Source: Mustelus asterias (lineage: Eukaryota). From it: DNA of 64,000 nucleotides. Both the position numbers and the translations under genes were made by a program. Position 1 is the stretch's first letter. Each line of letters starts with the position of its first letter. The notes under the pieces are model-generated. The model saw only the letters and a program-made list of their open reading frames with translations, was not told where the DNA came from and ran no database searches. Shown here piece by piece: positions 1 through 60,716 of the stretch. The DNA is taken from assembly GCF_964213995.1 (NCBI RefSeq), contig NW_027590144.1, forward strand, positions 1,116,001-1,180,000. The letters run 5' to 3'.

Positions 1-240
1 GACGGCAGGCAGGCAGGTAAGCAGGCCAGACGGCAGGCAGGCAGGTAAGCAGGCCAGACGGCAAGCAGGCAGGTAAGCAGGCCAGACGGCAGGCAGGCAG
101 GTAAGCAGGCCAGACGGCAGGCAGGCAGGTAAGCAGGCCAGACGGCAGGCAGGCAGGTAAGCAGGCCAGACGGCAAGCAGGCAGGTAAGCAGGCCAGACG
201 GCAGGCAGGCAGGTAAGCAGGCCAGACGGCAGGCAGGCAG
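1..240. repeat. 28-bp tandem repeat (GACGGCAGGCAGGCAGGTAAGCAGGCCA), about 8 units visible, in the Tx1 5'UTR
   Basis: Read directly; a shorter array of the same unit lies at ~7095-7250. Confidence 0.95.
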
Positions 241-420
241 GCAACAGGCAGGCCGGGCAAGGCAGGCAGCAGCTCACCTCCCTCCTTCCTCCCCGCAGGG
301 AGCGAAAAACAAACAAACCCAACAAAACAAAAACAAAAACCGGGCGTCTCCGTGAGCAAAAACGAGAGAAAAAAAAAAATAAAGGTACTCACAAAAAAAA
401 GAAAAAAAAACAAACCCACA

Positions 421-489
421 GTTTCCGCCCGGCTCCGACCCGGGCCCCCCGCTACTCGGGCGAACGTGAACTCACCCCACCCCGGAAAC
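421..489 (-). pseudogene. tRNA-Val-derived sequence in the 5' end of the tandem Tx1 copy
   Basis: Reverse complement GTTTCCG...TCACGTTCGCC...CCGGGCGGAAAC aligns end-to-end with vertebrate tRNA-Val; anticodon and B box degenerate. Confidence 0.8.
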
Positions 490-685
490 AAAGTGCAGGC
501 GCTGCCCCAGAGGAGGCACGTTTCAGGCCGTCTGAAGCTCAATTCTCATTCAGAAAGACCTCTTTTTAGGTCAAACCAAGTAAACAAACTCAAATTAAAT
601 CAGGACAAAGTAAAAGGGGCAGCTCCACAAAAAGGAGGGGGAACAGCCCGAACAGAAATCAAAATGCAAAGGAAACTTAAAAACA

Positions 686-3600
686 TCAAATTAAAATGTG
701 ATTATTAGGGTCAATAATGCACCCCAACCCCTGCGGTGCCCAGCGGGCGCGGAAAGCGTCAACCTCGCCCGTGGACACCGCATGCTCCCTCTCCAGGGAC
801 ACCTGGCCGTGAACGTAGCCGCGGTAGAGGGGAAGACAGTCAGGATGGACAGCCCCCTCGATCGCCCGCTGCCTGGACCGGTAAATGGCGCGTTTCGCCA
901 GGCCCAGGAGCAGGTTCACGAGGAGGTCGCCATCCCGACCCTCCCCTCTCCGCACCGGGTGTCCGTAGATCAGGAGCGTGGGACTGAAGTGCAAACAAAA
1001 CATCAATAAAAGGTTCTTCAGGAAAACATAAAGGGAGTGCAGCCTAAGACACTCAACATAGACATGGTCCACGGACTCCACAAGGCCACAGAAAGGGCAG
1101 TCTTCGGAGCCCGTGAACCAGTGAATCCTACGGTTGTGCGGAACTGCTGCATGCATCACCCTCCACCCCAGGTCCCCGACGTAATTGGGGGAGATCCCTC
1201 CGTAGAGGGACCTCCAGCGGGGACCTCCGCCGCCCGGCGGCAACAAGGCCCGCCAAGGTGTATCCGGGCGACAGGCGAGGAGGCGGTAGTGGAAGGTGTG
1301 CAGCAGCAGCCCGCACAGGAAACGCCTCCGCGCGGTAGAAAAAGGCACGGAGGGCATTTCCGCGAGGCGGCTCAGGCTGTGGGGCACCTCACCCAGGGGA
1401 GGGGGCTGAGGCTTTGGGCCAATGTGGAATTCCGCCCGAACAGGGGAACGCTCGGGCGGGATCCCACCGCACGCCTGTGCCGTCTCAAGTTTGCGTGCAG
1501 TTTCGGGGCCGAGCACGACCGTCCTAAGGTCTAGGATGGCTTTGGCCGCGCGCCGGACGGACGTCCCCGCGCGCTCAGCCAGCACGCGGGGACTCATCCA
1601 GCCCGCTCCTCCGCCATCGAGCACGTCCCCGATTCTGGTCACCCCGGCGTCCACAGCCCCCCTCTCCGCCAGCCACCTGAAGTTATACGGCTGGAGGAGC
1701 GGATTCCTGAGCAGCGGCTCTCGCACGAGAGCCGCTACTCCTGACGGGGGAGAGCTGCGTCGCGAGGCGACCTTGTTCCAGACAGTGAGGAGGTCCTGGT
1801 AAAAGACGGGCAACTCCTGCAGGGCGGTCGAAGCACGCCCCAGTTCGATATGCAGGAGCTGCACGTCATAATTGAGGCCGTGCCACTGGCGGAAGAAATA
1901 CGTCGCCATGGCACACCACTGTGGAGGGGGCTCAACGTAAAGGTACCTCTGCAGGGCCTGGAGGCGGAAGGTCGCTATCTGAGTGCGGAGGCACACCAGA
2001 CCTTGTCCGCCCTCCTCAAGCGGGAGATACAGGACCGCAGCAGGGACCCAGTGCAGTCGATTGCCCCAGAAGAACCGCACGAGGGTTCTCTGGATATCGG
2101 TGACAAAGCCAGGGGGAGGGGTCAAAGGGACCAGCCGGTACCACAGCATGGAGGCGACCAGCTGGTTTATGACTCGAGCTCGCGCCCCGTAGGACAGCAC
2201 TCGGAGCAGTCCTGTCCAGCGACCCAGGCGGGCGGAGACTTTGGCCTCCAGCTCCCGCCAGTTCGCCGGCCAGGATTCCTCGGCTGGGCAGAGATGGGCC
2301 CCCAAGTAGAGGAGGTTGGTCCTGCTCCAGGTGAAAGGCCTGAGCTCCTCCGGAAGGGGGTCCGTCTCCCAAGGACCGACAAGGAGTCCGGAGCACTTGG
2401 CCCAGTTGATCCTGGCGGAGGACGCGGCGGAGTACACCGCCTGGCATTCTCGCATCCTCCGCAGGTCAGCCGGGTCCGTGAACATGAGGAGCACGTCGTC
2501 GGCGTAAGCTGACAGGACCACCCCTACGTCCGGTCCGCGCAGGACCAAACCTGACAACCTCCTCCGCAAGAGGCGCAGGAATGGCTCCACGCATACGGAA
2601 TACAGTTGGCCGGACAAGGGGCAGCCCTGCCGTACTCCTCTCCCGAAGCGAAGGGGCGCCGTCAGGGACCCGTTAACCTTAATCAGACACTCTGCGGCAG
2701 AGTACAGTAATCGGATCCGGGCGACAAACTGCGTCCCGAACCCGAATGCCCGCAGAGTCCCGAGTAAATACTCGTGCTCCACCCTGTCGAACGCCTTCTC
2801 CTGATCTAATGACAAGAAGGCGCCCGACAGACCAGCCCTCTGGGTGTGATGGATTAGGTCCCGGACCAGGTGGAGATTGTCATGTATGCAACGGCCCGGG
2901 ACCGTGTAGGACTGGTCAGGGTGGATCAAGTGGTCCAGCACGGATCCAAGGCGTGAAGCCATAGCCCTGGCAAAGATTTTATAATCCGTGCTGAGGAGGG
3001 AGACCGGGCGCCAGTTCTTGAGCAGGTGGAGATCCCCCTTCTTGGGCAGCAGGGCAATGACGGCCCTGCGCCACGAAAGGGGCATCTCCCCGGTAGCGAC
3101 GCTCTCCCCCAGGACCCCCGCGTAGTCGCTCCCCAGGACGTCCCAGAACGCCCTGAAGAACTCTACTGTCAGCCCGTCCAGCCCAGGGGCCTTGCCCCGG
3201 CTGAGCCCATTTAGGGCGCCGGTCAGCTCGGCCATGGTGGTAGGGGCCTCGAGCCTGCCGACGCCCTCCGGGCTGACCTGCGGCAGGTCCTCCCACAGAA
3301 GTCTGCGGGCATCCTCGCTGGACGGATCCGGAGAGAAGAGCGAGGTGTAATACTCCCGGGCAATGGCCCGGATGCCCTCCGGATCCGAGACGGGGGAACC
3401 GTCGTCGGCCAGCAGCGTAAGGAGCTGCTGACGGTTAGCCCGCCCTCTTTCCAGCGAGTAGAAGAAGGGGGAGCCGCGGTCCAGGTCCACCCGGAACTGG
3501 AGCCGCGACCTCACGTACGCGCCGCGAGACCTGGCAAGCTGCAGGTCCCGCAGCGCGTCCTTCTTCTCCCTGTACTCCGAACGCAGGGCCGGGTCCGCGT

Positions 3601-4579
3601 CAGGCCGACTGAGACGTGCCTCCAGGTCGAGCACCTCCTTCTCCAACTCCTCGAGCCTGGATTTCCGCCTCTTTGTCGACCCCCTCGCGTACCCCTGACA
3701 GAAGGTACGGACGTGAGTCTTGCCCACATCCCACCAGAGCCTCAAGGAGGGGAAGCCTCCCCGCTTCCTTCTCCAGCCGGCCCAGAATCGACGGAACGAG
3801 TCCAGGAAGCGCTCGTCCTCCAGCAGCGTGTTGTTAAAGTGCCAGTACGCGGACCCCCGCCGGATGCGAGACGGCGCAAAGTCCGCCCACACCAGGCTGT
3901 GGTCCGTGCTCGACACCGGCCGCATGGAGACCGAGGACACGCCGGACACGTGCGCCTTCGAAATGTAAAGGCGGTCGAGCCTGGACGCTCCGACTCCAGG
4001 CCTCACGAAAGTGAAGGCGCTGGAGCCAGGATGGAGATGCCTCCAGACGTCCACCAAGTCGTGGGACCCGATCAGGTCCCGCAACTTCACCACCGCCGGA
4101 GTGCGCAGCCAGGGGCCGGTGCGGTCCCGTGCCTCGAGGAGGCAGTTGAAATCTCCCCCGAGGATAATGCATTCGCCCCCCGCGATGGTGTCGACGTGAG
4201 CGGACACTTTCTCGTAGAAAGTCGTTTGCTGCGGTCCAGCGGTCGGGGCGTAGACATTCAGCAAGTGAATGACCACGCCCCCCTCACGGACCGTCAAGTG
4301 CAGCAACCGGCCTGGCACCGGCTCCTTGACCCCCAAGATCTCCGGCTTATAACGCGGGGCCAACAAGATAGCCACCCCGCAAGAAGCGAGCGTGAGGTGG
4401 CTCATGTAGACCCCCCCTTGCCACTCCAGGAGCCATTGGGCTTCGTCTCCCGGAACGGTGTGGGTTTCCTGCAGGAAACACACCGCATACTTCCCGTCAC
4501 GGAGGACCGAGAAGTTCTGGAACCTGCGGTGTGGCTCACTGCTGCCGTTGATGTTGAGGCTGGCTATGGTCACCTTCAT
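686..4579 (-). CDS. Tx1 ORF2: APE endonuclease + reverse transcriptase + C-terminal CCHC (1297 aa)
   Basis: ASLNING, FLQETH, GGDFN, SRLDR, TDH (APE); PGLDG, WRPVSLL, DQEKAFD, RQGCPLS, AYADD, YLG (RT); CPFC-x8-H-x4-C. Confidence 0.97.
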   Translation of the reverse strand: MKVTIASLNINGSSEPHRRFQNFSVLRDGKYAVCFLQETHTVPGDEAQWLLEWQGGVYMSHLTLASCGVAILLAPRYKPEILGVKEPVPGRLLHLTVREGGVVIHLLNVYAPTAGPQQTTFYEKVSAHVDTIAGGECIILGGDFNCLLEARDRTGPWLRTPAVVKLRDLIGSHDLVDVWRHLHPGSSAFTFVRPGVGASRLDRLYISKAHVSGVSSVSMRPVSSTDHSLVWADFAPSRIRRGSAYWHFNNTLLEDERFLDSFRRFWAGWRRKRGGFPSLRLWWDVGKTHVRTFCQGYARGSTKRRKSRLEELEKEVLDLEARLSRPDADPALRSEYREKKDALRDLQLARSRGAYVRSRLQFRVDLDRGSPFFYSLERGRANRQQLLTLLADDGSPVSDPEGIRAIAREYYTSLFSPDPSSEDARRLLWEDLPQVSPEGVGRLEAPTTMAELTGALNGLSRGKAPGLDGLTVEFFRAFWDVLGSDYAGVLGESVATGEMPLSWRRAVIALLPKKGDLHLLKNWRPVSLLSTDYKIFARAMASRLGSVLDHLIHPDQSYTVPGRCIHDNLHLVRDLIHHTQRAGLSGAFLSLDQEKAFDRVEHEYLLGTLRAFGFGTQFVARIRLLYSAAECLIKVNGSLTAPLRFGRGVRQGCPLSGQLYSVCVEPFLRLLRRRLSGLVLRGPDVGVVLSAYADDVLLMFTDPADLRRMRECQAVYSAASSARINWAKCSGLLVGPWETDPLPEELRPFTWSRTNLLYLGAHLCPAEESWPANWRELEAKVSARLGRWTGLLRVLSYGARARVINQLVASMLWYRLVPLTPPPGFVTDIQRTLVRFFWGNRLHWVPAAVLYLPLEEGGQGLVCLRTQIATFRLQALQRYLYVEPPPQWCAMATYFFRQWHGLNYDVQLLHIELGRASTALQELPVFYQDLLTVWNKVASRRSSPPSGVAALVREPLLRNPLLQPYNFRWLAERGAVDAGVTRIGDVLDGGGAGWMSPRVLAERAGTSVRRAAKAILDLRTVVLGPETARKLETAQACGGIPPERSPVRAEFHIGPKPQPPPLGEVPHSLSRLAEMPSVPFSTARRRFLCGLLLHTFHYRLLACRPDTPWRALLPPGGGGPRWRSLYGGISPNYVGDLGWRVMHAAVPHNRRIHWFTGSEDCPFCGLVESVDHVYVECLRLHSLYVFLKNLLLMFCLHFSPTLLIYGHPVRRGEGRDGDLLVNLLLGLAKRAIYRSRQRAIEGAVHPDCLPLYRGYVHGQVSLEREHAVSTGEVDAFRARWAPQGLGCIIDPNNHILI

Positions 4580-4607
4580 GTCAGCAGCTTTGTGCCACCG
4601 TCACCAC

Positions 4608-6701
4608 TTAACTAGGTGTGTGGGGGGGCGCTGGCGCAATTCTCACCAGTCCACCCCCCACCTTTTCGAGCCTGTGGAGGAACCGCAGTACCCAGCGCCG
4701 CTCTATTTTCTCCAGGCCCGCGGAGGCATGCGAGCATGCCTTCACGGACCGGACGAGCTGCGCCAGGTCCGGCCAGCGGCCGAGGGCTAGCCGGATTATG
4801 TCGGAGCGACCGGAATGGCTACGGATAAAGACCCTGAGGTCCTTGGAGGGGATGAGGGACGACTCGGTGGGGGGCACGAGGGAGTCCCCCGCCTCGCTCT
4901 GGGCAGACTCTGAAAGTGTCCCCGTGCCCTCCACCGAGCCGCTGACCTCCTCAGGGCGGTCGCCCCTCGACTCCGAGTCCCCCGCCGCAGGACGTACGGC
5001 GGGCGGCACGGAGCCACCAACTAGCCCTAGCCCCTCCCCGATCCCACCCCCAGGATCGGTGGAGGAGGGGTTCCCCCCGGGCTCACCTTTCCCGGATTGC
5101 GGGCCCCCGTGCGGCGGCGGCCCAGCCGCCCCCTCCGCCCCAGACGCTTGGACACCCCCCAGGTCCGGTGTATCCTTCGGACTGAGGTTGGGGATGTCCA
5201 GCGTCCAAGGTCGGGACGGAGAGGACGAGTGGATCGTCTCTTCGCCACCGCCGCACGAGGACATGAACATTGGAGTGTCGCCCCAGTCCCCCGACAGACT
5301 GAAGAAGAACTCCGGGTTGTAACCGGCCGGGTGGAACGGAACCGTGGGGGCCCCGCTGCCACCCGGCCCCGGACACTCCTCGCCGGGGGACTGAGGCAAC
5401 ACATGCTTGGATTTACAGGGTGCCTTGCCCCCTTTTTTCTGGGGACAAGGCACAAAGACAGGTGGGGGCACGGCAGGAGATGACTCACAAGGGGGGAGGG
5501 GCACGCAGACCTCGAACTCTACGGTGCCCGAGGGGCCCCGCCTCTTTTTGTTAACCTGCCCTCGGGCAGGCGAGGCCCCTCGCCCTCCGCCCCTCTTCGC
5601 CTTGCCGCGCCCCCCCTGCTCTCCCGTCACTTCCCCCCGAGGTGGCGGCGTCGCCAGTTTTGCCGGCTCGGGGTCGCTTACCCCCCCATGCTCGGGCCCA
5701 TGATCCCGGGCGCCGGACCCAGCACGAGGCCCCGGAGAGCCCACGGGCCCGGCAGATGGTGGTGGTGGGGGGGGTGCGCAGGTGGAGACTGAGGCGGTCC
5801 CCGAGCCGGCTGCCGGGGTGGTTGGGGTGTTTTCCCTGGGGGCCGGGGTTCCGGTACCCCCCTTCTTTTTTGTAGGTCCTTTATGGGCCTTTTGGCCGCG
5901 CGGGGGCTCCGCTCCCCCCCCGCCGGCAGCTGAGGTGGCAGCTGCTGCCGGCGTGGCCTCCCCTCGCGGGGGGGCAGATGGTACTCGCTTGGGGGGAGAG
6001 GGGGCTGCGGTGCCAGCTGCGGCCGCCTTGGGTTGGTGGTCGGCGGCCTTGGAGACGGGGCAGTTTTTCCTCACGTGCCCCGCCTCCTTACAGGCATGGC
6101 ACCGCACACCGTCCGCGGACCAAAAGACCCGGTACGTGGTCCCCTCGTGGGGGACATTGAAACCTCCCTCCAGTTCCTCCTCCCGGGCCAGGCGGACAAA
6201 AACCTGGCGCCGGAAGGAGTATATGTGGCGGAGGGAGGGGTCCCGAAGGCCGAGCGGGATCGGCTGCACCCCGGACCTGACCTCCCCCAGTAGATGGAGG
6301 TGGGGGAGGAGGAGCTCACTCGGTAGGAAGGGCGGGACGTTCGATATTACTATCTTGTGGGCGGTGGCCTCCAAAGGGTCCACCGCCAGGAACGTCCCGC
6401 CCACCGTGAGCCCCTTTTCCAGGGCGAGGCGAACCGCCCGCTCGGCCTTCAGGAAGAATACGGCCCGGCCGTACATCTTTGAGGCCGCGACAATGGCTGA
6501 GGGGCCGACAACCCCAGCCATTGCCTTAACGCAGGCCTCGATAGACATGTCGGGGTGGGCGTAGCACTTCACCCCGAGCTGCCGCGTGATTAAAGAGAAT
6601 GGCGGCAGGGCCTTGGGAGCGGCGGGGGCTCTGGCAGCCGCCACGCCCGCATAGGTGGGCCGAGAAGGCCCTGCCACCGGCGACGCTGGTGATGTCGCCA
6701 T
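4608..6701 (-). CDS. Tx1 ORF1 nucleic-acid-binding protein with CCHC zinc knuckle (697 aa)
   Basis: Tx1-type N-terminal region (ASKMYGRAVFFL, ISNVPPFLP, SFRRQV), knuckle CHACKEAGHVRKNC, long Pro/Gly-rich C-terminus; immediately upstream of ORF2. Confidence 0.92.
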   Translation of the reverse strand: MATSPASPVAGPSRPTYAGVAAARAPAAPKALPPFSLITRQLGVKCYAHPDMSIEACVKAMAGVVGPSAIVAASKMYGRAVFFLKAERAVRLALEKGLTVGGTFLAVDPLEATAHKIVISNVPPFLPSELLLPHLHLLGEVRSGVQPIPLGLRDPSLRHIYSFRRQVFVRLAREEELEGGFNVPHEGTTYRVFWSADGVRCHACKEAGHVRKNCPVSKAADHQPKAAAAGTAAPSPPKRVPSAPPRGEATPAAAATSAAGGGGAEPPRGQKAHKGPTKKKGGTGTPAPRENTPTTPAAGSGTASVSTCAPPPPPPSAGPVGSPGPRAGSGARDHGPEHGGVSDPEPAKLATPPPRGEVTGEQGGRGKAKRGGGRGASPARGQVNKKRRGPSGTVEFEVCVPLPPCESSPAVPPPVFVPCPQKKGGKAPCKSKHVLPQSPGEECPGPGGSGAPTVPFHPAGYNPEFFFSLSGDWGDTPMFMSSCGGGEETIHSSSPSRPWTLDIPNLSPKDTPDLGGVQASGAEGAAGPPPHGGPQSGKGEPGGNPSSTDPGGGIGEGLGLVGGSVPPAVRPAAGDSESRGDRPEEVSGSVEGTGTLSESAQSEAGDSLVPPTESSLIPSKDLRVFIRSHSGRSDIIRLALGRWPDLAQLVRSVKACSHASAGLEKIERRWVLRFLHRLEKVGGGLVRIAPAPPHTPS

Positions 6702-7094
6702 TGTATCAGGGGAAGTGCTACACCCACCCCGAGACTGCCCAGATGCACGGCAGGGCGTATGTGGGATGGGGAAGATAAGGCAGGGTGGGGTAGGCGGGGA
6801 AGGGTGTAGGTGCTCTCTCCTCGGAGCGAGAGAGGGAGAGAGGAGGTTGGAGGAGCAGGAGGGAGATGAGGCACAAGGCCGGTGCCCCAGTCAGGAGGGA
6901 AAAGGGGAGGGGGTGCCGGTCCCGGGGGCAGCAGTAGTGGGTAGGGGAAATAGGAAAGGTCTTCACCCCCCCCCACTGCAGATGGAAAAGAGACAGTCCA
7001 AACGCCTTCGCCCCCCCCCCCTCTCCTCCAGTCACTCCCTGTCCTCTCTTCCTCCCCCCCCCCCCCGGGAGAGCGCACCCTCCAGAGGCCGGAT

Positions 7095-7270
7095 GGCAGG
7101 CAAGCAGGCAGTCAGGCAGTCCAGACGGCAGGCAGCCCAGACGGCAGGCAGGCAGGTAGGTAAGCAGGCCAGACGGCAGGCAGGCAGGTAAGCAGGCCAG
7201 ACGGCAGGCAGGCAGGTAAGCAGGCCAGACGGCAGGCAGGCAGGCAACAGGCAGGCCGGGCAAGGCAGGC
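7095..7270. repeat. GGCA-rich / 28-bp tandem repeat in the Tx1 5'UTR
   Basis: Same unit as 1-240, with fewer copies. Confidence 0.9.
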
Positions 7271-7420
7271 AGCAGCTCACCTCCCTCCTTCCTCCCCGCA
7301 GGGAGCCAAGAACAAACAAAACAAAACAAAACAAACAGAACCGGGCGTCTTCTTAAACAAACTGAAAAACAAAGTGTGTTACTCACAAACCAAACAAAAA
7401 AAAAGAAAGCAAGTCCAAAA

Positions 7421-7490
7421 GTTTCCGCCCGGCTCCGACCCGGGGCCCCCCGCTACTCGGGCGAACGTGAAACCACTTCACCCCGGAAAC
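7421..7490 (-). pseudogene. tRNA-Val-derived head of the full-length Tx1 copy
   Basis: RC GTTTCCGGGGTGAAGTGGTTTCACGTTCGCC...CCGGGCGGAAAC; acceptor stem GTTTCCG/CGGAAAC intact, B box mutated. Confidence 0.82.
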
Positions 7491-7555
7491 AAAGTGCAGG
7501 CGCTGCCCCAGAGGAGGCACGTTTCAGGCCGTCTGAAGCTCAATGTTCATTCAGA

Positions 7556-8063
7556 GAGAGAGAAGCAGCAGCAGCTTTGCTGGACAGGAATGAGCAGCTG
7601 AACAAGCTCATTGTCCACTTCCGCATTCAGACAATGAGGAGCTGTGATTGGCTGGAGGAGCCCAGACGTCCGGTCCCCCAGGGTTCCCATTGGTCAATGC
7701 CCCGCAGACAGACAATGAGGGGCGGAGCCCCACGTGGGGGTGGGCGGGACTTTGCCCTCCAGCCGCGCTGAGCTGTTGTCCAATGGGGCAGGCTGGAAGA
7801 CCCGGACAGACAATGGTCAGTGCGCCGGCTCTGTCCCGGGCCCCGCCCCACACCCGCACATTCCACATAACGCGCATCCTCCGAAATCCACACATGCTCA
7901 TTCCCCAAATTCCGCCAATGTGCCCAAATTCCGACTCACTGCCTCTCACCGTAGCCAATGGGAAGTGTTGGAACACCGGAAGGACTCTGGTCCTTGTGTG
8001 AATGAAGATTGAGCTTCAGACGGACTCAAACTTCCTCCTTAAAAGAGGCCAATATCTGTGAGT
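7556..8063. promoter_or_regulatory. Bidirectional ZNF promoter P1 and plus-strand non-coding exon 1 (donor GTGAGT at 8058)
   Basis: Several CCAAT/ATTGG boxes, GC boxes, CACGTG, ACTTCCG; homologous to 30750-31000 and 44800-44970; leader GAATGAA-ATTGAGCTTCAGAC present in both orientations. Confidence 0.65.
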
Positions 8064-8356
8064 AAAACACTTTCTATTCTTCCCCTTTCCATTTATTTTC
8101 TCATTCTGCGGGAAATTGGGGACTTGCAGCAACTGAAGGGAAAGGAAGTGAATCCAGGGAGGCTGCAGACTCTGGAAAGGTTGGTCCAGGTCTCTCTCTC
8201 TCTCTTAAAGACATTGACATCCTTTGCTCCCTCAGCTTGACACATTGATTTGTCTGGCTAAAAGGATGATCACTTTCCTAATGTTCCTTTCCTAATGTCC
8301 CTTTCCTAATGTTTCCCAGGAGATGACTGACATTTAAGGGGACAGTAAATTAATAT

Positions 8357-13299: not shown

Positions 13300-13927
13300 T
13301 CCAGGACAGGAAGCAGTGAGCATGGATCTGTCAATCAGCCTCAATCAGCACCTTGAGGAGAATGGGGAGGGTGAATATTAGATACAGCAGAGTGAGAATG
13401 GAGGGAGAGTGTGTGGGATGGAGATTTACAGCTTTTGGGGAATGAGAGAGGAAAAAATGTTCCATAGAAACTAGAATTGTCTGTTCTGAATTTCTATCCT
13501 GTACTGACTGTGATGAATTTTTACAATTTTTACAATAATTACTTCTGTAAATTCCTTTTACAGGATATCAGAAGGTGAGGATTTACAGACAAAAACTCAG
13601 AACAAACATCTCATCAACATCTGACAGAGTCATTCAATTTATCGGGACCTGAATATTATCGACATTTGATTCCAGAAGGAGAAATGTTTCTCTGTTCTTT
13701 CTGCTTCACAAGATTCTCAACATCAATGCAACTGGAAAAGCACTGAGACACACACACACACACCCGAGAGTGAGCGTACTCCAGTGCACTGAGTGTGGAA
13801 AGAGCTTTAACCAGTTACACCACCTGAAAATACATCGCAGCATTCACAGCGGGGAGAGACTGTACCCGTGTTCTGTGTGAGATTTAACTGATTATTTAAC
13901 CTGGAGAGTCACAAGGACGCCCGCACC

Positions 13928-15106
13928 ATGGAGAAACCGTGGAAATGTGGGGACTGTGGGAAGGGATTCAGGCACCCATCTGCAGTGGAAACTCATCGAC
14001 GCAGTCACACTGGGGCGCAACCATTCAGCTGCTCTCAATGTGGGAAGGGATTCACTCAGTCATCCAGCCTGCAGAGACACCAGCGAGTTCACACTGGGGC
14101 GAGTATGTTTACATGCTCTCAGTGTGGGAAGGGATTCACTCAGTTCTCCAGCCTGCAGAGACACCAGCAAGTTCACACTGGGGAGAGGCCGTTCACCTGT
14201 TCTGACTGTGGGAAGGGATTCACTCGCTTATCCCACCTGCTGAGCCACTATCTCACTCACACCAATGAGAGACCCTTTAAATGCTCTGACTGTGGAAGCA
14301 GATTCAAAAGCTCTCGAGAACTGATTTCCCACCAGCGAGTTCACACTGGGGAGAGACCGTTCAGCTGCTGTGTGTGTGGGAAAGGATTTACTCAGTTATC
14401 CAACCTACTGACACACCAGCGAGTTCATACCGGGGAGAGGCCATTCACATGCTCTGTGTGTGGGAACAGTTATATTCACTTATCCAGCTTGCTAAGCCAC
14501 AAAGTCACTCACACCAATGAGAGACCCTTTAAATGTTCTGATTGTGGGAGTGGCTTCAAAAGCTCTGGAGAACTGATGTCCCACCAGCGCATTCACAGTG
14601 AGGAGAGACCGTTCAGCTGCTCTCACTGCACAAAGAGATTTAGAACGTCATCCAACCTGTGTGCACACCAGCGAGTTCACACTGGGGAGAGACCATTCAC
14701 CTGCTCTGAGTGTGGGAAGGGATTCACTCATTCATCCCATCTGCACAGACACAAAGGCTCTCACAGCAATGAGAGGCCCTTTAAATGCTCTGACTGTGGG
14801 AGTGGCTTCAAAAGTGCTGCGGATCTGTTGGACCACCAGCGCATTCACACTGAGGAGAGACCGTTCAGCTGCTCTCACTGCACAAAGAGGTTTAGAAGGT
14901 CATCCGCACTGCGGAGACACCAGCGAGTTCACACCGGGGAAAAACCATTTACATGCTCGGAATGTGGAAAGGGATTCACTGAGTTACGCAATCTACAGAC
15001 ACACCAGCTACTTCACACTGGGGAGAGGCCATTCACCTGCTCTGTGTGTGGAAACGGATTCACTCGGTCATCCCACCTACAGAGACACCAACAAATTCAC
15101 AAATGA
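13928..15106 (+). CDS. ZNF-A: tandem C2H2 zinc-finger protein, 14 fingers, no effector domain
   Basis: CxxC-x12-HxxxH repeats with TGERPF-type linkers; upstream small exon ~13305-13370 and acceptor TTTTACAG at 13563. Confidence 0.92.
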
Positions 15107-28845: not shown

Positions 28846-29511
28846 TCACTCGTGAACTTGTTGGTGTCTCAACAGGTGGGATGAAACTCTGAATCCCTTC
28901 CCAAAGGTGAATGGCCTGTCTTCAGTGTGAACTCGCTGGTGTCTCTGCAAGTCAGATGATTGAGTGAATCCCTTCCCACACTGAGAGCAGGTGAACGGTC
29001 TTTTCCCAGTGTGAAACTGCTGGTGTCTGTTCAGGTCGGATGACTGAGGAAATCCCTTCCCACACTGAGAGCAGGTGAATGGCCTCTCCCCAGTGTGAAC
29101 TCGCTGGTGTGACTGCAGGTGAGATGACCGAGTGAATCCCTTCCCACACTGAGAGCAGGTGAATGGCCTCTCCCCAGTGTGAACTCGCTGGTGTACCCGC
29201 AGGTCAGATGACCAAGTGAATCCTTTCCCACACTGAGAGCAGGTGAATGGCCTCTCCCCTGTGTGAACTCGCTCGTGTGTCCGCAGGTCAGATGGCCAAG
29301 GGAATCCCTTCCCACACTGAGAGCAGATGTACGGCCTCTCCCCAGTGTGAACTCGCTCGTGTGTCCGCAGGCCGGATAACTGAGTGAATCCCTTCTCACA
29401 CTGAGAGCAGGTGAACGGCCTCTCCCCAGTGTGGCTGCGCCGATGAGCTTCCAGCAGGGATGGGGCTCTGTATCCCTTCCCACAGTCTGCACATTTCCAT
29501 GGTTTCTCCAT
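28846..29511 (-). CDS. ZNF-B: C2H2 zinc-finger protein, 7 fingers plus a last finger lacking CxxC
   Basis: MEKPWKC start shared with paralogs; homogeneous [10 protein letters not shown] fingers. Confidence 0.88.
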
Positions 29512-30283
29512 GGTGCAAGTGTCCTTGCCTCTCGCTTGGGTGGACAATCAGTTGAAGCCTCGTCCTCACACAGAACATGTATACAGTCTCTCTCCGCTGT
29601 GAATGGTGTGATATTTATTCAGGCTGTGTAACTGGTTAAAGCTCTTTAGACAGTGCACTGGAACACTCTCACTCGACTGTGGCAGTGTGTTTGTGCTTTT
29701 CGAATCACACTGATATTTGAATTCTTTTCAAATCAACAGACCAGACAATCATTTCTCCTTCTGGATCCAACAGCCGATGATATTCATGTCCCAGGGAATA
29801 TGACTCTGTTAGATCTGGACATGATGTATGAGATTTCAGCCTGTGATTCCTCTTTCAATATCCTGTAAAACGAGTTTACAAAAGGTATCATTGTCAGTAC
29901 AGGTTAGAAATTTAGAGGCCAATTCTAATTTCTGTGGAACATTCTTTCCTCTCTCATTCCCCAAAAGCTGTGAATCTCCATCCCACACACTCTCCCTCCA
30001 TTCTCACACTGCTGTATCTAATATGCACCCTCCCAATTCTCCTGAAGGTGCTGATTGAGGCTGATTGACAGATCCATGCTCACTGCTTCCTGTCCTGGAC
30101 ACAGGGAGCTGAAAATCATCAAGCTGACAACCATGTTAAAGTTTTACATTTGGACATAAGTGAGCAGATTGATGATGTATGTATTACCTGGTTACAGATA
30201 TGAAGAATGTGAGGAGGATTATTATTTTGGCAGCGAGTGGTGACTTGGAAGTTAAAAATTGAAGCCCAGAGTTTCGTACTCCT

Positions 30284-30629: not shown

Positions 30630-30733
30630 CCTCTTTTCAGGCCAAACCAAATAAACAAACTGAAGTTAAATCAGTAAACAGACTAGACAGTGCAAAGTTA
30701 CTGCCGTGACTCGGATTCGAACCGAGGTTGCTG
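30630..30733 (-). mobile_element. Candidate Tx1-mobilised SINE: tRNA-His 3' half (30702-30733) + spacer + Tx1-like 3' tail (30630-30674)
   Basis: RC CAGCAACCTCGGTTCGAATCCGAGTCACGGCA matches the 3' 32 nt of vertebrate tRNA-His-GTG; tail is 40/45 identical to the Tx1 terminus at 559-603. Confidence 0.75.
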
Positions 30734-31539: not shown

Positions 31540-32108
31540 TGTCCAGGACAGGAAGCAGTGAGCATGGATCTGTCAATCAGCCTCAATCAGCACCTTCAGG
31601 AGAATTGGGAGGGTGAATATTAGATACAGCAGAGTGAGAATGGAGGGAGAATGTGTGGGATGGAGATTCACAGCTTTTGGGGAATGAGAGAGGAAAGAAT
31701 GCTCCATAGAAACTAGAATTGTCTGTTCTGAATTTCTGTCCTGCTCTGACAATGGTGAATTTTGTAAACTTCTTTCACAGGATATCAGAAGATGACAGTT
31801 TACAGACAGAAATCTTAAACCAAACTTCACATCAATATCTGACAGAGTCACTCAATTCATCCGGACCTGAATACCTTTGAATCTAGAAGGAGAAATGTTT
31901 CTCTGTTCTGTCTGCTTCAGAAGATTTTAAACATCAGTTTGGCTGGAAAAGCACCGACACACATAAACACACCCGAGTGAGAGTGTTCCAGTGCACTGTG
32001 TGGAACCAACAGTTACACAGCCTGAAAAAAACATTGCAGCATTCAGAGCAGGGAGATTGTACCCGTGTTGTATTGATGCATGAGGAAAGATACAAGGAGA
32101 CCCACACC

Positions 32109-33287
32109 ATGGAGAAACCGTGGAAATGTGGGGATTGTGGAAAGGGATTCATGTCCCCATCCGAGCTGGAGATTAATCGACGCAATCACACTGGGGAGAA
32201 GCCATTCACCTGCTCTGTGTGTGGGAAGGGATTCATTCATTCATCCCACCTGCTGAGGCATAAAGTCATTCACACCCTGGACAGACCCTTTAAATGCTCT
32301 GACTGTGGGAGTGAATTCAAAAGCTCTGGAAAACTGGTGTCCCACCAGCACATTCACACTGAAGAGAGACCATTCAGCTGCTCTCACTGCTCAAAGAGGT
32401 TTAAAACATCATCCAACCTGCGAATACACCAGCGAGTTCACTCCAGGGAGAGACCGTTTACCTGCTCTGAGTGTGGGAAGGGATTCACTGCTTCATCCTA
32501 CCTGCTAAGACACAAAGTCACTCACACCAATGAGAGACCCTTTAAATGCTCTGACTGTGGGAGCGGCTTCAAAAGGTCTCGGGAACTGATGGCACACCAG
32601 CGCATTCACACTGAGGACAGACCATTCACCTGCGCTCAGTGTGGAAAGGGATTCACTCAGTTATCCGCACTGCAGCTACACCAGCGAACTCATACTGGGG
32701 AGAAGCCGTTCACCTGCTCTGTGTGTGGGAAGGGATTCACTCGGTCACACAGCCTGATAAAACACAATCTCACTCACACCAATGAGAAACCCTTTAAATG
32801 CTCTGACTGTGGGAGTGGCTTCAAACGTGCTGAGAATCTGATGTCCCACCAGCGCATTCACACTGAGGAGAGACTGTTCAGCTGCTCTCACTGCACAAAG
32901 AGGTTTAAATGGTCAAACGGCCTGCGGGAACACCAGCGAGTTCACACTGGGGAGAGACCGTTCACCTGCTCTGTGTGTGGGAAGGGATTCACTCAGTCAT
33001 CCGCCCTGCTGAAACACAAAGTCACCCACACCCAGGAGAGACCCTTTAAATGTTCTGACTGTGGAAGTGGTTTCAAAAGTTCTCGGGCACTGATGTCCCA
33101 CCAACGCACCCACACTGAGGAGAGACCATTCAGCTGCCCTCACTGCACAAAGAGGTTTAGAAGGTCATCCCACCTTCAGAAACATGAGCGAATTCACACT
33201 GGGGACAGGCCATTCACCTGCTCTGTGTGTGGGAAGGGATTCATTCAGTCATCTCACCTGCTGAAACACCAGCGAGTTCACAAGTGA
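32109..33287 (+). CDS. ZNF-C: C2H2 zinc-finger protein, 14 finger units (first has His->Asn)
   Basis: 392 aa from the shared MEKPWKC start; the reading frame is open further upstream to 31977. Confidence 0.92.
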   Translation: MEKPWKCGDCGKGFMSPSELEINRRNHTGEKPFTCSVCGKGFIHSSHLLRHKVIHTLDRPFKCSDCGSEFKSSGKLVSHQHIHTEERPFSCSHCSKRFKTSSNLRIHQRVHSRERPFTCSECGKGFTASSYLLRHKVTHTNERPFKCSDCGSGFKRSRELMAHQRIHTEDRPFTCAQCGKGFTQLSALQLHQRTHTGEKPFTCSVCGKGFTRSHSLIKHNLTHTNEKPFKCSDCGSGFKRAENLMSHQRIHTEERLFSCSHCTKRFKWSNGLREHQRVHTGERPFTCSVCGKGFTQSSALLKHKVTHTQERPFKCSDCGSGFKSSRALMSHQRTHTEERPFSCPHCTKRFRRSSHLQKHERIHTGDRPFTCSVCGKGFIQSSHLLKHQRVHK

Positions 33288-43341: not shown

Positions 43342-44127
43342 CTACACAGAGCAGCTTAACGGTCTGTCCCCAGTGTGAACTCGCTGGTGTTTCCGCAGGT
43401 CGGATGACCGAGTGAATCTCTTCCCACATTGAGAGCAGGTGAATGGTTTCTCCCCAGTGTGAACTCGCTGGTGTCTCTGCAGCGTGGATGACCTTTTAAA
43501 CCTCACTGAACATTGTGAGCAGCTGAACGGTCTCTCCTCAGTGTGAATGCGCTCATGCTCTCGAAGAACTGCAGCACTTTTGAAGCCGCTCCCACAGTCA
43601 GCACATTTAAAAGGTCTCTCATTGCTGTGAGTACCTTTGTGTTTCATGAGGCTGGATGAAGCAGTGAATCCCTTGCCACACATGGCGCAGGTGAATGGTT
43701 TCTCTCCAGTGTGAACTCGCTGATGTACCCGCAGGTTGGATGACCTTTTAAATCTCTTTGTGCAGTGAGAGCAGCTGAACGGCCTCTCCTCAGTGTGAAC
43801 ACGTTGATGGGACACCAGTTCCCAAGAACTTTTGAATCCGCTCCCACAGTCAGAGCAGTTGAAGGGTTTCTCACTGGTGTGAGAGAGATTGTGACTCAGC
43901 AGCTGGGATGAGCGAATGAATCCCTTCCCACACATGCTGCAGGTGAACGGCATCTCCCTGATATGAACTTGCTGGTGTGTCAGCAAGTCGGATGACTGAA
44001 TGAATCCCTTCCCACACATGCAACAGGTGAATGGTCTGTCCCCAGTATGAATGTGTCGATGAACTTCAAGCCGAGATGGGAATCTGAATCCCTTCCCACA
44101 GTCCCCACATTTCCACGGTTTCTCCAT
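43342..44127 (-). CDS. ZNF-D: C2H2 zinc-finger protein, 9 fingers, ending at a premature stop
   Basis: MEKPWKC start; ends ...PLSCSV* within a finger. Confidence 0.85.
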
Positions 44128-44772
44128 GGTGCGGGTGCCCTTGTGACTCTCCAGGTTTGGCTATCAGTTGAAGCCTCGTCCACATACAGAACATGGGTAC
44201 AGTCTCTCCCCACTGTGAATGCTGAGATGTTTTTTTCACGTTGTGTAACTGGTTAAAGTTCTTTCCACACTCAGCGCACTGGAACACTGTCTGTAAATCC
44301 TCACCCTCTGATATCCTGTAAAAGGAATTTACAAAAGTCATCAGTGTCAGTACAGGAGAGAAATTCAGAACAGACAATTTCTATGGAACATTCTTTCCTT
44401 TCTCATTCCCCAAAAATCATAAATCTCCATCCCACACACTCTCCCTCCATTCTCACTCTGCTGTATCTAATATTCACCCTCCCAATTCTCCTGAAGGTGC
44501 TGATTGAGGCTGATTGACAGATCCATGCTCACTGCTTCCTGTTCTGGACAAAAAAAGCTGCAAATCTTCAAGCTGACAGCCACGTTAAAGCTTTACAATT
44601 GGACATAAATGAGCAGACTGATGATGGTGTAATACACTGTATCACCTGGTTAGAGAAACATGAAGAATGTGAGGAGGATCTTTATTGAAGCAGCGAGTGG
44701 TGACCTGGAAGTTAAAAATTCAACTCCAGAATGAGAAAAGAAATGGAAGCGGGGAGAGAAGAAAGTGTTTTA

Positions 44773-45098
44773 CTCACAGATGTCGGAGAGACAGGAGGAA
44801 GTTTGAGCCTGTCTGAAGCTCAATGTTCATTCAGAGAGGGAGCAGCAGCAACTTTGCTGGGCAGGAATGAGCAACTGAACAAGCTCATTGTCCACTTCCG
44901 CATTCAGACAATGGGGAGCTCTGATTGGCTGGAGGACCAGAGTCCTTCCGGTCCTCCAACTCCCCCATTGGTCAGCACCTCAGCATAAGGACCAGGGGGT
45001 GGGCACTCTACCGCACGTGCGCAGCTTCCCCTCTCCCTTGGACATGCGCAGCCCTGGGCCTTGGGGGAGTGGACAGAGTACAACTTCCTCCTGTGAGT
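44773..45098. promoter_or_regulatory. Bidirectional ZNF promoter P3 with both exon-1 ends uninterrupted (donors 44778 minus, 45093 plus)
   Basis: 44810-44940 is nearly identical to 7530-7660 and serves as the empty-site reference. Confidence 0.7.
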
Positions 45099-45686: not shown

Positions 45687-46311
45687 GGACAGGAAGCAGT
45701 GAGCATGGACCTGTCAATCAGCCTCAATCAGCACCTTCAGGAGAATTGGGAGGGTGAATATTAGATACAGCAGAGTGAGAATGGAGGGAGAGTGTGTGGG
45801 ATGGAGATTCACAGCTTTTGAGGAATGAGAGAGAAAAGAATGTTCCATAGAAACTGGAACTGTCTGTTCTGAATTTCTATGCTGTGCTGACATTGATGAA
45901 TTTTTACAATAATTTTTACAATAATTACTTTTGTAAATTCCTTTTACAGAATATCAGAAGGTGAGGATTTAAAGACAAAAACTCAAAACTAACATCACAT
46001 CAACATCTGACGGAGTCATTCAATTTATCGGGACCTGAATATTAGCCACATTTGATTCTAGAAGGAGAAATGTTTCCATGTTCTTTCTGCTTCAGAAGAT
46101 TTTAAACATCAGTTTGACTGGAAAAGCACTGAGACACACACACACACACCCGAGTGAGAGTGTTCCAGTGCACTGAGTATGGAAAGAGCTTCAACCAGTT
46201 ACACAGCCTGAAAATACATCGCAGCATTCACAGCGGGGAGAGACTGTACCCGTGTTCTGTGTGAGATTTAACTGATTGTTTAACCTGGAGAGTTACAAGG
46301 ACACCCGTAGC

Positions 46312-47073
46312 ATGGAGAAACCATGGAAATGTGGGGACTGTGGGAAGAGATTCAGGTTCCCATCTCTGCTGGAAACTCATCGACGCAGTCACACCGGGGA
46401 GAGACCATTCACCTGCTCTGATTGTGGGAAGGGATTCAGGTTCCCATGTGAGCTGGAAACACACCATTACAATCACACTGGGGAGAGACCGTTCACCTGC
46501 TCTGTGTGTGAGAAGGGATTTACTCGGTTATCCCACTTGCTGACACACAATCTCACTCACACCAATGAGAGACCGTTTAAATGCTCTGACTGTGGGAGTG
46601 GCTTCAAAAGCTCTTGGGAACTGGTGAAACACCAGCGCATTCACACTGGGGAGAGGCCGTTCACCTGTCCTGTGTGTGGGAAGGGATTCACTACTTCAGC
46701 CGGTCTGCACAATCACAATCTCACTCACACCCAGGACAGACCCTTTAAATGCTCTGAATGTGGGAGTGGTTTCAAAAGCTCTCAGTATCTGATGAGACAC
46801 CAGCGCATTCACACTGAGGAGAGACTGTTCAGCTGCTCTCATTGCTCAAAGAGATTTAAAACGTCGTACTCCCTGCTGACACACCAGCGCATTCACACTG
46901 AGGAGAGACCATTCAGCTGCTCTCACTGCACAAAGAGATTTAGAAGGTCATCCAACCTGTGGGAACACCAGCGGGTTCACACCGGGGAGAGACCATTCAC
47001 CTGCTCTGTGTGTGGGAAGGGATTCACTTATTCATCCAACCTGCTGACACACAAAGCCACTCACGCCAATTAG
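46312..47073 (+). CDS. ZNF-E: C2H2 zinc-finger protein, 9 fingers, truncated by GAG->TAG
   Basis: MEKPWKC start; linker TNERPF reads HAN*RTF. Confidence 0.85.
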   Translation: MEKPWKCGDCGKRFRFPSLLETHRRSHTGERPFTCSDCGKGFRFPCELETHHYNHTGERPFTCSVCEKGFTRLSHLLTHNLTHTNERPFKCSDCGSGFKSSWELVKHQRIHTGERPFTCPVCGKGFTTSAGLHNHNLTHTQDRPFKCSECGSGFKSSQYLMRHQRIHTEERLFSCSHCSKRFKTSYSLLTHQRIHTEERPFSCSHCTKRFRRSSNLWEHQRVHTGERPFTCSVCGKGFTYSSNLLTHKATHAN

Positions 47074-59821: not shown

Positions 59822-60213
59822 TCATTGACATGAATTAACGGTGTCCATCAGTGCAAGGGAAATGTTCACAAAACTGGGTTTACCGCTGGATTTGTCAACT
59901 GTTCTGTTGATGATCTTCAAGGGGATGGCTTCATGTCCCACCACACAGGAGTAAGAAGCGCCGCTGGACCATTGCTCTGCTGCAATGGATAACAGACTGT
60001 ACATGAAGAAGGAGCTATTGCCGTTCTCCGCGACCACCGCGGTGTTCGTGTAGTTCCCAGGATTCACCGGCTTGTCGTTGACGGTCCACTTGACGAAGAT
60101 CTCTCGCGGGGAGAAACGTCTCACTAAGCAGCTGAGGGAGACGAATCTCTGAGCGGAGACTTCTTCTGCCGAGGGCAGGAGGACAGAGACGGACGGTTCC
60201 CGCGGATTTAGAT
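59822..60213 (-). CDS. IGHM: IgM CH4 + secretory tailpiece (internal donor at 59884/59883 for the membrane form)
   Basis: TTCTGCAG|; SLSCLV...VKW...YSCVVGHEA; tail [20 protein letters not shown] with N-glycan site and penultimate Cys; AGCG|GTAAAC. Confidence 0.95.
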
Positions 60214-60716
60214 CTGCAGAAAATGTAGAATAGATGTCAATAAACTGGAGAATTCTGGAGACAATGAAACTGCTGGCTAGATATCAGAAAAATGTGCTTC
60301 GCTTTCGATTTTAAATGTTTCTATTTTTGACTTCCAGCTTGGAGGAGAGTTGAACGCAATTGTTTTCTCAAATAACTCAGCGGGTTGGACTGGAAAGTTT
60401 CAGAAAGTTCACAGCACTGAATCAGGCTATTCGGCCCAACTGATCGGCTTTATTTTTGGTTTTCTGGTTTTTATGCTCCACATCAGGCTCCTCCCTCCTT
60501 ATTCGATCTAAACCCAATAACATCGCCTTCAGTTCACTTTTCATTCATAAACACATCAAATTTCCCCGTACAAATATCTGCAGGGCCAGAGTCTTTAGTT
60601 AGTGGAGTTTCCACTCAGGGGACACCATTAATGCACTGAATACTGAATATTGACCAGTACACTTCCACTGGAAATAGACACAGTGACGCATTTATTGCTT
60701 CAATCTCTCAGCTCAC

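Follow-up and report, generated by a model that had tools for sequence, protein, structure and literature searches.

The closest described relatives of the element discussed here belong to the Tx1 clade of non-LTR (long terminal repeat) retrotransposons, or LINEs (long interspersed nuclear elements). Tx1L of Xenopus, whose second open reading frame (ORF2) is represented by P14381, has the Tx1D DNA transposon as its target, whilst Keno (U2), Kibi ((TC)n), Koshi ((TTC)n) and Tx1-Mar (Mariner) also have multicopy targets and insert in tandem on either side of a duplication; further families of the clade are Mutsu (5S) and Dewa (tRNA arrays). As far as the consulted sections of three papers go, the targets of site-specific LINEs comprise RNA genes, spliced-leader exons, microsatellites, telomeres and transposons, with no RNA polymerase II (Pol II) protein-coding family among them (PMC4494074; PMC8869645; PMC4640811). 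Here, we describe a Tx1-clade element from the shark Mustelus asterias, present in a 64,000-nt stretch of contig NW_027590144.1 (positions 1,116,001 to 1,180,000; hereafter the window) that also carries a cluster of C2H2 zinc-finger (ZNF) genes.

We consider it probable that a recently active lineage of this clade prefers the 5' end of a ~1,000-member C2H2-ZNF family as its target and, by inference, uses the promoter found there as well. To the target types listed above for site-specific LINEs, this target-specific Tx1 element adds a Pol II protein-coding family, at its first exon, with many intact copies that are 99% alike. A literature search turned up no LINE described as having ZNF first exons as its target, although Repbase, subscription papers and supplements could hold one. 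Elements of the Tf1 type, known from fission yeast, insert at Pol II promoters or 5' ends; these, however, are LTR elements acting at many unrelated promoters, whereas the shark element prefers one paralogous exon and fixed nucleotides within it.

The element and its relatives

The initial annotation of the window had identified an intact Tx1 retrotransposon, and so it proves to be: both ORFs are free of stop codons and ORF2 encodes APE endonuclease and reverse transcriptase (RT) domains (Table 1). The ORF2 protein is 49% identical to that of Xenopus Tx1 (P14381) across 100% of its length and 51% identical to a turtle protein, these two being the best named full-length relatives; the closest RT homologue, from a stingray, is 75% identical. 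In an RT tree of 28 rows, picked from 120 listed hits and with no L1 rows among them, the element falls into a six-row clade (support 100/100) with Xenopus Tx1, turtle, sturgeon and stingray sequences and one unnamed row, apart from the teleost set. On the strength of these sequence comparisons the element can be placed in the Tx1 clade. It resembles Tx1L in its two ORFs, APE endonuclease, target preference and RT grouping, but differs in that its target is the first exon of a host gene rather than a transposon, its endonuclease hairpin loop is three residues shorter and its target motif off target amounts to ~4 nt. The other named Tx1 families are set apart by their described targets, their sequences not being identifiable in the RT tree. 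Relatives at roughly 85% identity turned up in contig sets of related species, and a turtle gene model (P0019) has a Tx1 ORF2 relative fused to KRAB and C2H2 domains.

There is no poly(A) tail, and neither AATAAA nor ATTAAA occurs in the last 200 nt of the element. 5'-truncated copies share a fixed 3' end, and target-site duplications of 12–15 nt are found in many off-target copies and are lacking in others. Among 20 genomic regions chosen at the main target (site A, below), ORF2 is whole in 12 and both ORFs in eight.

A ZNF first exon as the target

The window contains five C2H2-ZNF ORFs, four of which are preceded, in the same orientation, by a 60-nt unit that ends in CT followed by GTGAGT and has promoter-like sequence before it. 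Promoter motifs, this exon-1 unit with its conserved GT donor, a downstream acceptor and a ZNF ORF follow one another in a single orientation. An exon-2 homologue lies downstream of 11 of 16 exon-1 remainders, and a ZNF ORF within 2.4 kb downstream of seven. The unit must be non-coding because the distance from its ATG to the donor falls in all three phases (10, 3 and 9 of 22 cases). Judged by these sequence features, the target is a non-coding first exon of ZNF genes, putatively spliced to exon 2. Across the 3.68-Gb genome the unit's donor motif has 995 occurrences, and the family can be put at roughly 1,000 members. Four contig sets from related species were also aligned to one sampled region (L175) at 80% likeness, giving matches dominated by an intronic repeat; the best 15 of these 435 repeat-swamped matches included no exon 1–exon 2, head-to-exon 2 or head–intron joint, which is no evidence either way.

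Insertions fall at two points in the exon-1 unit: site A, at its start, and site B, ~45 nt downstream and just before the donor. At the 3' junction of the window element, the sequence ...AAAAAGAGG is followed by TC(TC)nTGAATGAAGATT, the start of an exon-1 unit and hence site A. A first genome search placed 30 of 30 loci on target, but its query held 15 nt of flank and the result was discarded as a rate. A second search, whose query lay entirely within the element, put 17 of 30 loci at site A (followed by the start of an exon-1 unit or by a head beginning with the same sequence), two in short tandem arrays and 11 elsewhere. The exact tail of the young subfamily, to which the window copy belongs, occurs 219 times, and a slightly shorter tail joined to the target motif 127 times, with four of 100 of the matches listed being chance matches rather than targets. 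Site A accordingly holds ~120–125 of the 219 young tails. The genome contains ~9e7 TCTS sites. Among such sites, the share expected at site A by chance is 3–7e-5, and the enrichment is ~10,000-fold. Insertions are strongly enriched at exon 1, where they lie in the sense orientation.

An older sister subfamily uses site B, where 330 junctions, stubs included, were counted. The flank C(A/G)ACATCTGTGAGT that the initial annotation had predicted for the window family was seen in none of 102 young junction contexts; it belongs to this older subfamily. The flank motif goes with the age of the element. Copies with a CCA flank are 92–93% identical to the window copy, those with GCA 94%, those with ACA 96% and those with TC 99%, and a tree of 100 3' ends gave the same ladder with modest support. 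The preferred site has shifted from B, used by the older subfamily with its CCA flank, to A, used by the young one with its TC flank, and such a dated series of shifts in one 60-nt exon makes endonuclease, RNA pairing or tethering testable as the source of specificity. At site B, the duplication includes the donor itself in seven of 18 loci resolvable by eye, so that the insert would lie in an intron; in the rest, the target is truncated.

Independent insertion or gene duplication

A rival account has a few chance insertions carried across the ZNF genes through segmental duplication, unequal crossover or gene conversion. This did happen to the insertion at the second promoter of the window (P2, described below) and probably to many site-B stubs, and shared 5' junctions and swapped flanks are also seen. 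In a sample of 28 site-A copies with a true exon-1 remainder next to them, however, the elements are 99.1% alike, whilst the next 110 nt are 88% and the next 450 nt 63% alike, and the hosts form 25 clusters at 97%. Such a contrast between element and host identity speaks against segmental duplication at site A and in favour of separate insertions. Host variants begin right at the junction, two truncated copies (L170 and L007; L labels denote sampled genomic regions) each have a perfect 14-nt duplication of their own, the register of the junction differs among copies, and two separate sites are used by two subfamilies. Spread by duplication is largely refuted for site A and, as a general account, strikes us as having only the slimmest of chances; that all copies descend from one insertion, a danger the initial annotation had recognised, is not what is found there. 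Insertion is by target-primed reverse transcription and leaves duplications of 14–15 bp.

What determines the site

Another way to account for the pattern would be a Kibi-like element that targets TC repeats and encounters the ZNF exon as a common TC tract in open chromatin. Off-target junction contexts begin with TC in 38 of 52 cases, and Kibi itself is described as targeting (TC)n in the part of PMC4494074 consulted. Yet the flanks mostly comprise only one to three TC units, off-target sites are for the most part not microsatellites, TCTS sites are abundant and the main target is a unique exon, so the element does not behave as the microsatellite families Kibi and Koshi do. In addition, the older subfamily hits the same exon at a non-TC site, and the RT domain groups with the Xenopus, turtle and sturgeon elements instead of the teleost set. 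We regard a TC-repeat targeter as very improbable. Neither U2, 5S nor tRNA genes were seen as flanks at the 3' junctions read by eye; RNA-gene pieces are passengers only.

A protein-only mechanism is a serious possibility, if not the one we would expect to hold. The endonuclease would read a short motif, regional specificity would come from tethering to a promoter factor or from open, unmethylated germline chromatin, and RNA homology would do no more than seal the 5' junction. In keeping with this, the target region has stayed constant whilst the site moved by ~45 nt and the motif changed, and tRNA chimeras with a mere tail stub also land at site B. Residues of the endonuclease hairpin loop differ between subfamilies, a point that also tells against our own proposal; the same loop alters nicking when grafted, according to the section of PMC1950540 consulted. 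The median observed/expected CpG ratio is 0.63 for young off-target flanks (n = 24) against 0.32 (n = 38; p = 1.4e-4), but this contrast is confounded by age, and near and far flanks do not differ significantly (p = 0.08). Two features stand against protein alone. Lineage by lineage, the first flank base changes together with the exon-1 variants, and the register of the junction shifts within the TC run. A motif as short as that shared by off-target sites cannot explain the enrichment. Pairing of run-on RNA at the 3' end would fit three observations, namely that there is no poly(A) signal, that the register slips and that the first flank base is linked to lineage. RNA pairing and protein recognition may both act on site choice.

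The head of the element

According to the initial annotation, the element began directly after the ...CCTCC of the promoter flank at the first promoter (P1). The flank itself was correctly described: 7530–7660 is 93% identical to the third promoter (P3) over 129 nt, the match extends to 7512–7696 against 44793–44974 at 86%, and the exon text given for P3 is as stated. The diverged stretch after ...CCTCC, however, recurs in every one of the 30 heads examined and is part of the element. It would be explained by a captured exon 1 together with a tRNA retrocopy. In three older full-length heads, with which the window head aligns, exon 1 is followed by a broken donor and a tRNA, which Rfam recognises in all three and ARAGORN assigns to Val-GAC in two. 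Two of these heads (L217 and L221) have a second exon-1-like donor after the tRNA; Rfam finds no tRNA in the young head. We infer from these alignments an ancestral capture, in which the 5' end came from a ZNF gene with a tRNA retrocopy already at site B.

Of 20 promoter-preceded heads, 14 have variants in the exon-like start that are specific to heads: none of 29 target remainders and none of seven empty sites has them. The promoters upstream belong to several lineages. This combination indicates that the 5' exon copy was brought by RNA and not by simple duplication. The head motif occurs 110 times genome-wide. All 30 heads examined lie after a ZNF promoter (14) or another tail (16), which lends indirect support, at the level of sequence, to the suggestion of the initial annotation that the element is transcribed from the host promoter. 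No full-length off-target copy was found, the 5' ends of long off-target young copies having been left unread. Eight of 42 heads lack, as spliced RNA would, a segment that runs from a GT donor to a CAG acceptor; a microhomology deletion is a possible cause.

Transcription might instead start within the element, from the tRNA-derived head by RNA polymerase III or from the GC-rich 5' untranslated region (5'UTR). In its favour, a tRNA-Val can still be recognised in older heads, and no host promoter adjoins the copies within arrays. On the other hand, the tRNA has decayed beyond detection in young heads, long T runs follow it, part of the head lies upstream of it and each sampled head has a promoter or a tail as its context, all of which makes an internal promoter improbable in our view.

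A proposed cycle

Host-promoter transcription combined with homologous sealing of the 5' end is the simplest reading and would parallel R2, the element of 28S rDNA. R2 is co-transcribed with its target, carries target sequence at its RNA 5' end that shapes the 5' junction and pairs through a 3' run-on, each of which would hold for the shark element too; 4–100 nt of read-through target sequence raise its accuracy and efficiency (PMC6795142, for both points in the portion consulted). R2 differs in that its endonuclease is restriction-like, it has one ORF and a ribozyme, and it is transcribed by Pol I; the shark element has APE, two ORFs, probable Pol II transcription and weaker specificity. In the cycle that we envisage, Pol II would start at the host ZNF promoter and read through exon 1 into the element. 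The transcript, having no poly(A) signal, would extend beyond the end of the element into what remains of exon 1. The endonuclease would nick a short motif in open promoter chromatin, pairing of the run-on RNA with the nicked strand would fix the site and the exon-1-like end of the cDNA would anneal to the upstream target. Only at a ZNF promoter or an earlier head would a full-length copy then be completed, so that tandem arrays build up, and off-target copies would be 5'-truncated, promoterless dead ends. More speculatively, the donors in the head might let the host gene splice the element out.

Several findings weigh against this proposal. A search for RNA records that include this stretch listed none, and no sampled parent of the spliced-looking heads has both donor and acceptor. 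Off-target sites share only ~4 nt with the target, leaving RNA pairing and endonuclease preference unseparated, and 15 of the 127 tail-plus-target matches form one micro-array on one contig. About 45% of young copies are off target and most of the 1,678 tails of the whole family are dispersed: on the largest contig, 29 of 30 sampled family tails have unrelated flanks, mostly starting with CCA, GCA or ACA, the other being a stray site-B type. A single flank type exceeds 20%, the proportion used in the consulted part of PMC4494074, in the young subfamily (~55%) and in the CCA subfamily (89 of 316 tails at site B, 28%), but not in the pooled 1,678. What we see is strong preference in two subfamilies rather than strict family-wide specificity. 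The claim of the initial annotation that a multicopy ZNF first exon is targeted holds for independent insertions genome-wide, whilst the exact site was misplaced and the preference is partial; likewise, flanks are related for the young tails at site A but not for most of the family.

Shared junctions also count against the proposal. One 5' truncation junction is common to ten site-A contexts with differing 3' flanks, L180 and L186 share a 5' junction and look recombined, and the L168 and L170 genes are 99.7% identical but differ in element length and promoter, as recombinants might. Recombination between copies therefore also moves junctions. The ten contexts (L002, L009, L012, L014, L025, L026, L041, L167, L197 and L211) have in common a truncated element of 1.1 kb and the foreign sequence 5' of it; this may be a composite non-autonomous unit, or recombination may have produced it. 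The L168–L170 pair had been considered as a case of 5' transduction and was rejected as recombinant-like.

The preference for a ZNF exon offers a driver for the rapid turnover of ZNF clusters. We know of no characterised ZNF repressors in the shark lineage. A bolder reading, which we find doubtful, makes the element an RNA-guided resident of a transposon-defence family: with its captured exon it would home by homology at both RNA ends, be expressed with the germline ZNF cluster and spare the host gene through its own donors, recombination between copies would reshuffle ZNF promoters and bodies, and the change of site, from B to A, would reflect one round in an arms race. This reading is by analogy, since the evidence that ZNFs repress transposons is from zebrafish, sharks going unmentioned in the main text as consulted (PMC10547256).

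Features of the window

Table 1. Coordinates of the element, its target and neighbouring features, counted from the first nucleotide of the window
Feature	Position	Strand	Remarks
Full-length young Tx1-clade LINE	559-7559	-	3' end ...CCTAAAAAGAGG at 559
ORF1, 697 amino acids	4608-6701	-	one CCHC knuckle; no Pfam hit
ORF2, 1297 amino acids	686-4579	-	APE endonuclease (6-227), RT (512-762), C-terminal Cys/His motif
Exon-1-like start of element head	7512-7559	-	captured ZNF exon 1, carried by element RNA
Decayed tRNA-Val-derived segment	7421-7490	-	aligns with tRNA-Val(GAC) of older heads; Rfam negative here
Splice-donor-like GTGAGT	7376-7386	-	descended from exon-1 donor; second donor-like site 7281-7275
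Tandem repeat in 5'UTR, 28-nt unit	7087-7272	-	length varies among copies
Site A target segment, 14 nt	545-558	-	separates two tandem copies
Head and 5'UTR repeat of second, downstream copy	1-544	-	breaks off ~1.9 kb left of window
Host ZNF promoter module P1	7560-7700	-	CCAAT at 7693 and 7651, initiator-like CTCATT at 7594; half of divergent promoter pair
Opposite-strand exon-1 unit	7987-8108	+	10-nt Tx1 tail stub (8039-8048) at site B; serves ZNF ORF 13892-15106
C2H2-ZNF ORF, 13 fingers	13892-15106	+	served by exon-1 unit 7987-8108
Paralogous ZNF ORF	28846-29547	-	paralogue of 13892-15106
P2 insertion at site B	30630-30732	-	3' part of tRNA-His, trailer and Tx1 tail
Paralogous ZNF ORF	31887-33287	+	paralogue of 13892-15106
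P3 gene	43342-44546	-	downstream acceptor ~44543, exon 2, C2H2-ZNF ORF
Empty P3 exon-1 unit	44772-44837	-	site A near 44837, site B near 44786, donor at 44777
Paralogous ZNF ORF	46276-47073	+	paralogue of 13892-15106

The end of the tandem array left of the window, to which the initial annotation had pointed, does not resolve into a host gene: the second copy breaks at about -1920 inside ORF1 and runs into unrelated repeats (L031), there is no exon-1 remainder and the ZNF gene expected for the P1 minus strand is not found within 60 kb. The break represents a deletion, a rearrangement or a misassembly.

RNA-gene chimeras and other observations

The initial annotation had read the short element at P2 as further evidence of targeting. 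Its tail is indeed of the Tx1 type, but the five whole copies share flanks that are 94–100% alike, and the chimera is one insertion spread by gene duplication, with no independent bearing on targeting; for the same reason, the candidate SINE (short interspersed nuclear element) family, which would need unrelated loci, was rejected. Rfam finds nothing at P2, and the tRNA identity comes from genome matches (two of the three matched genes being His and one Arg). Site B of L022, L096, L177 and L184 holds a complete tRNA, identified in L177 as Arg-ACG, together with a trailer, a stub of Tx1 tail and a duplication; the downstream flanks look alike, so this is probably one event that spread with the genes. 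In L007, L025, L045 and L176, exon 1 is split by a 5S rRNA pseudogene and then a SINE, with a young Tx1 at site A upstream of the pseudogene. Two further regions contain template-switch chimeras, with U2 snRNA sequence joined to a truncated Tx1 (L163, 1863–2546) and what we take to be a tRNA-Gly-like piece, in which ARAGORN found no tRNA, joined to a tail stub (L074).

Short truncated copies also form arrays (units of 132–260 nt; C89 2431503–2433787, L052/L053 and L057–L059), the units being separated by duplications or directly joined; this is satellite-like growth from Tx1 3' ends. A young copy in L100 has a 15-nt duplication and lies inside the apparent antisense strand of another Tx1 copy.

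A second promoter type, seen at window 7990–8010 and in L218 and L220, has no site A, since TGTG stands where the TC run would be, and is possibly immune to the young subfamily. The ZNF ORF starts share one MEKPW motif, a decayed, frameshifted finger-like coding stretch lies upstream of each ZNF ORF (window 13560–13930 and 44100–44320) and, in the one window ZNF ORF scanned, Pfam returned finger domains only. Adjoining the ZNF cluster is an immunoglobulin constant-domain exon (59822–60283, minus strand; Pfam C1-set), which we presume to resemble the last domain of the shark secretory heavy chain.

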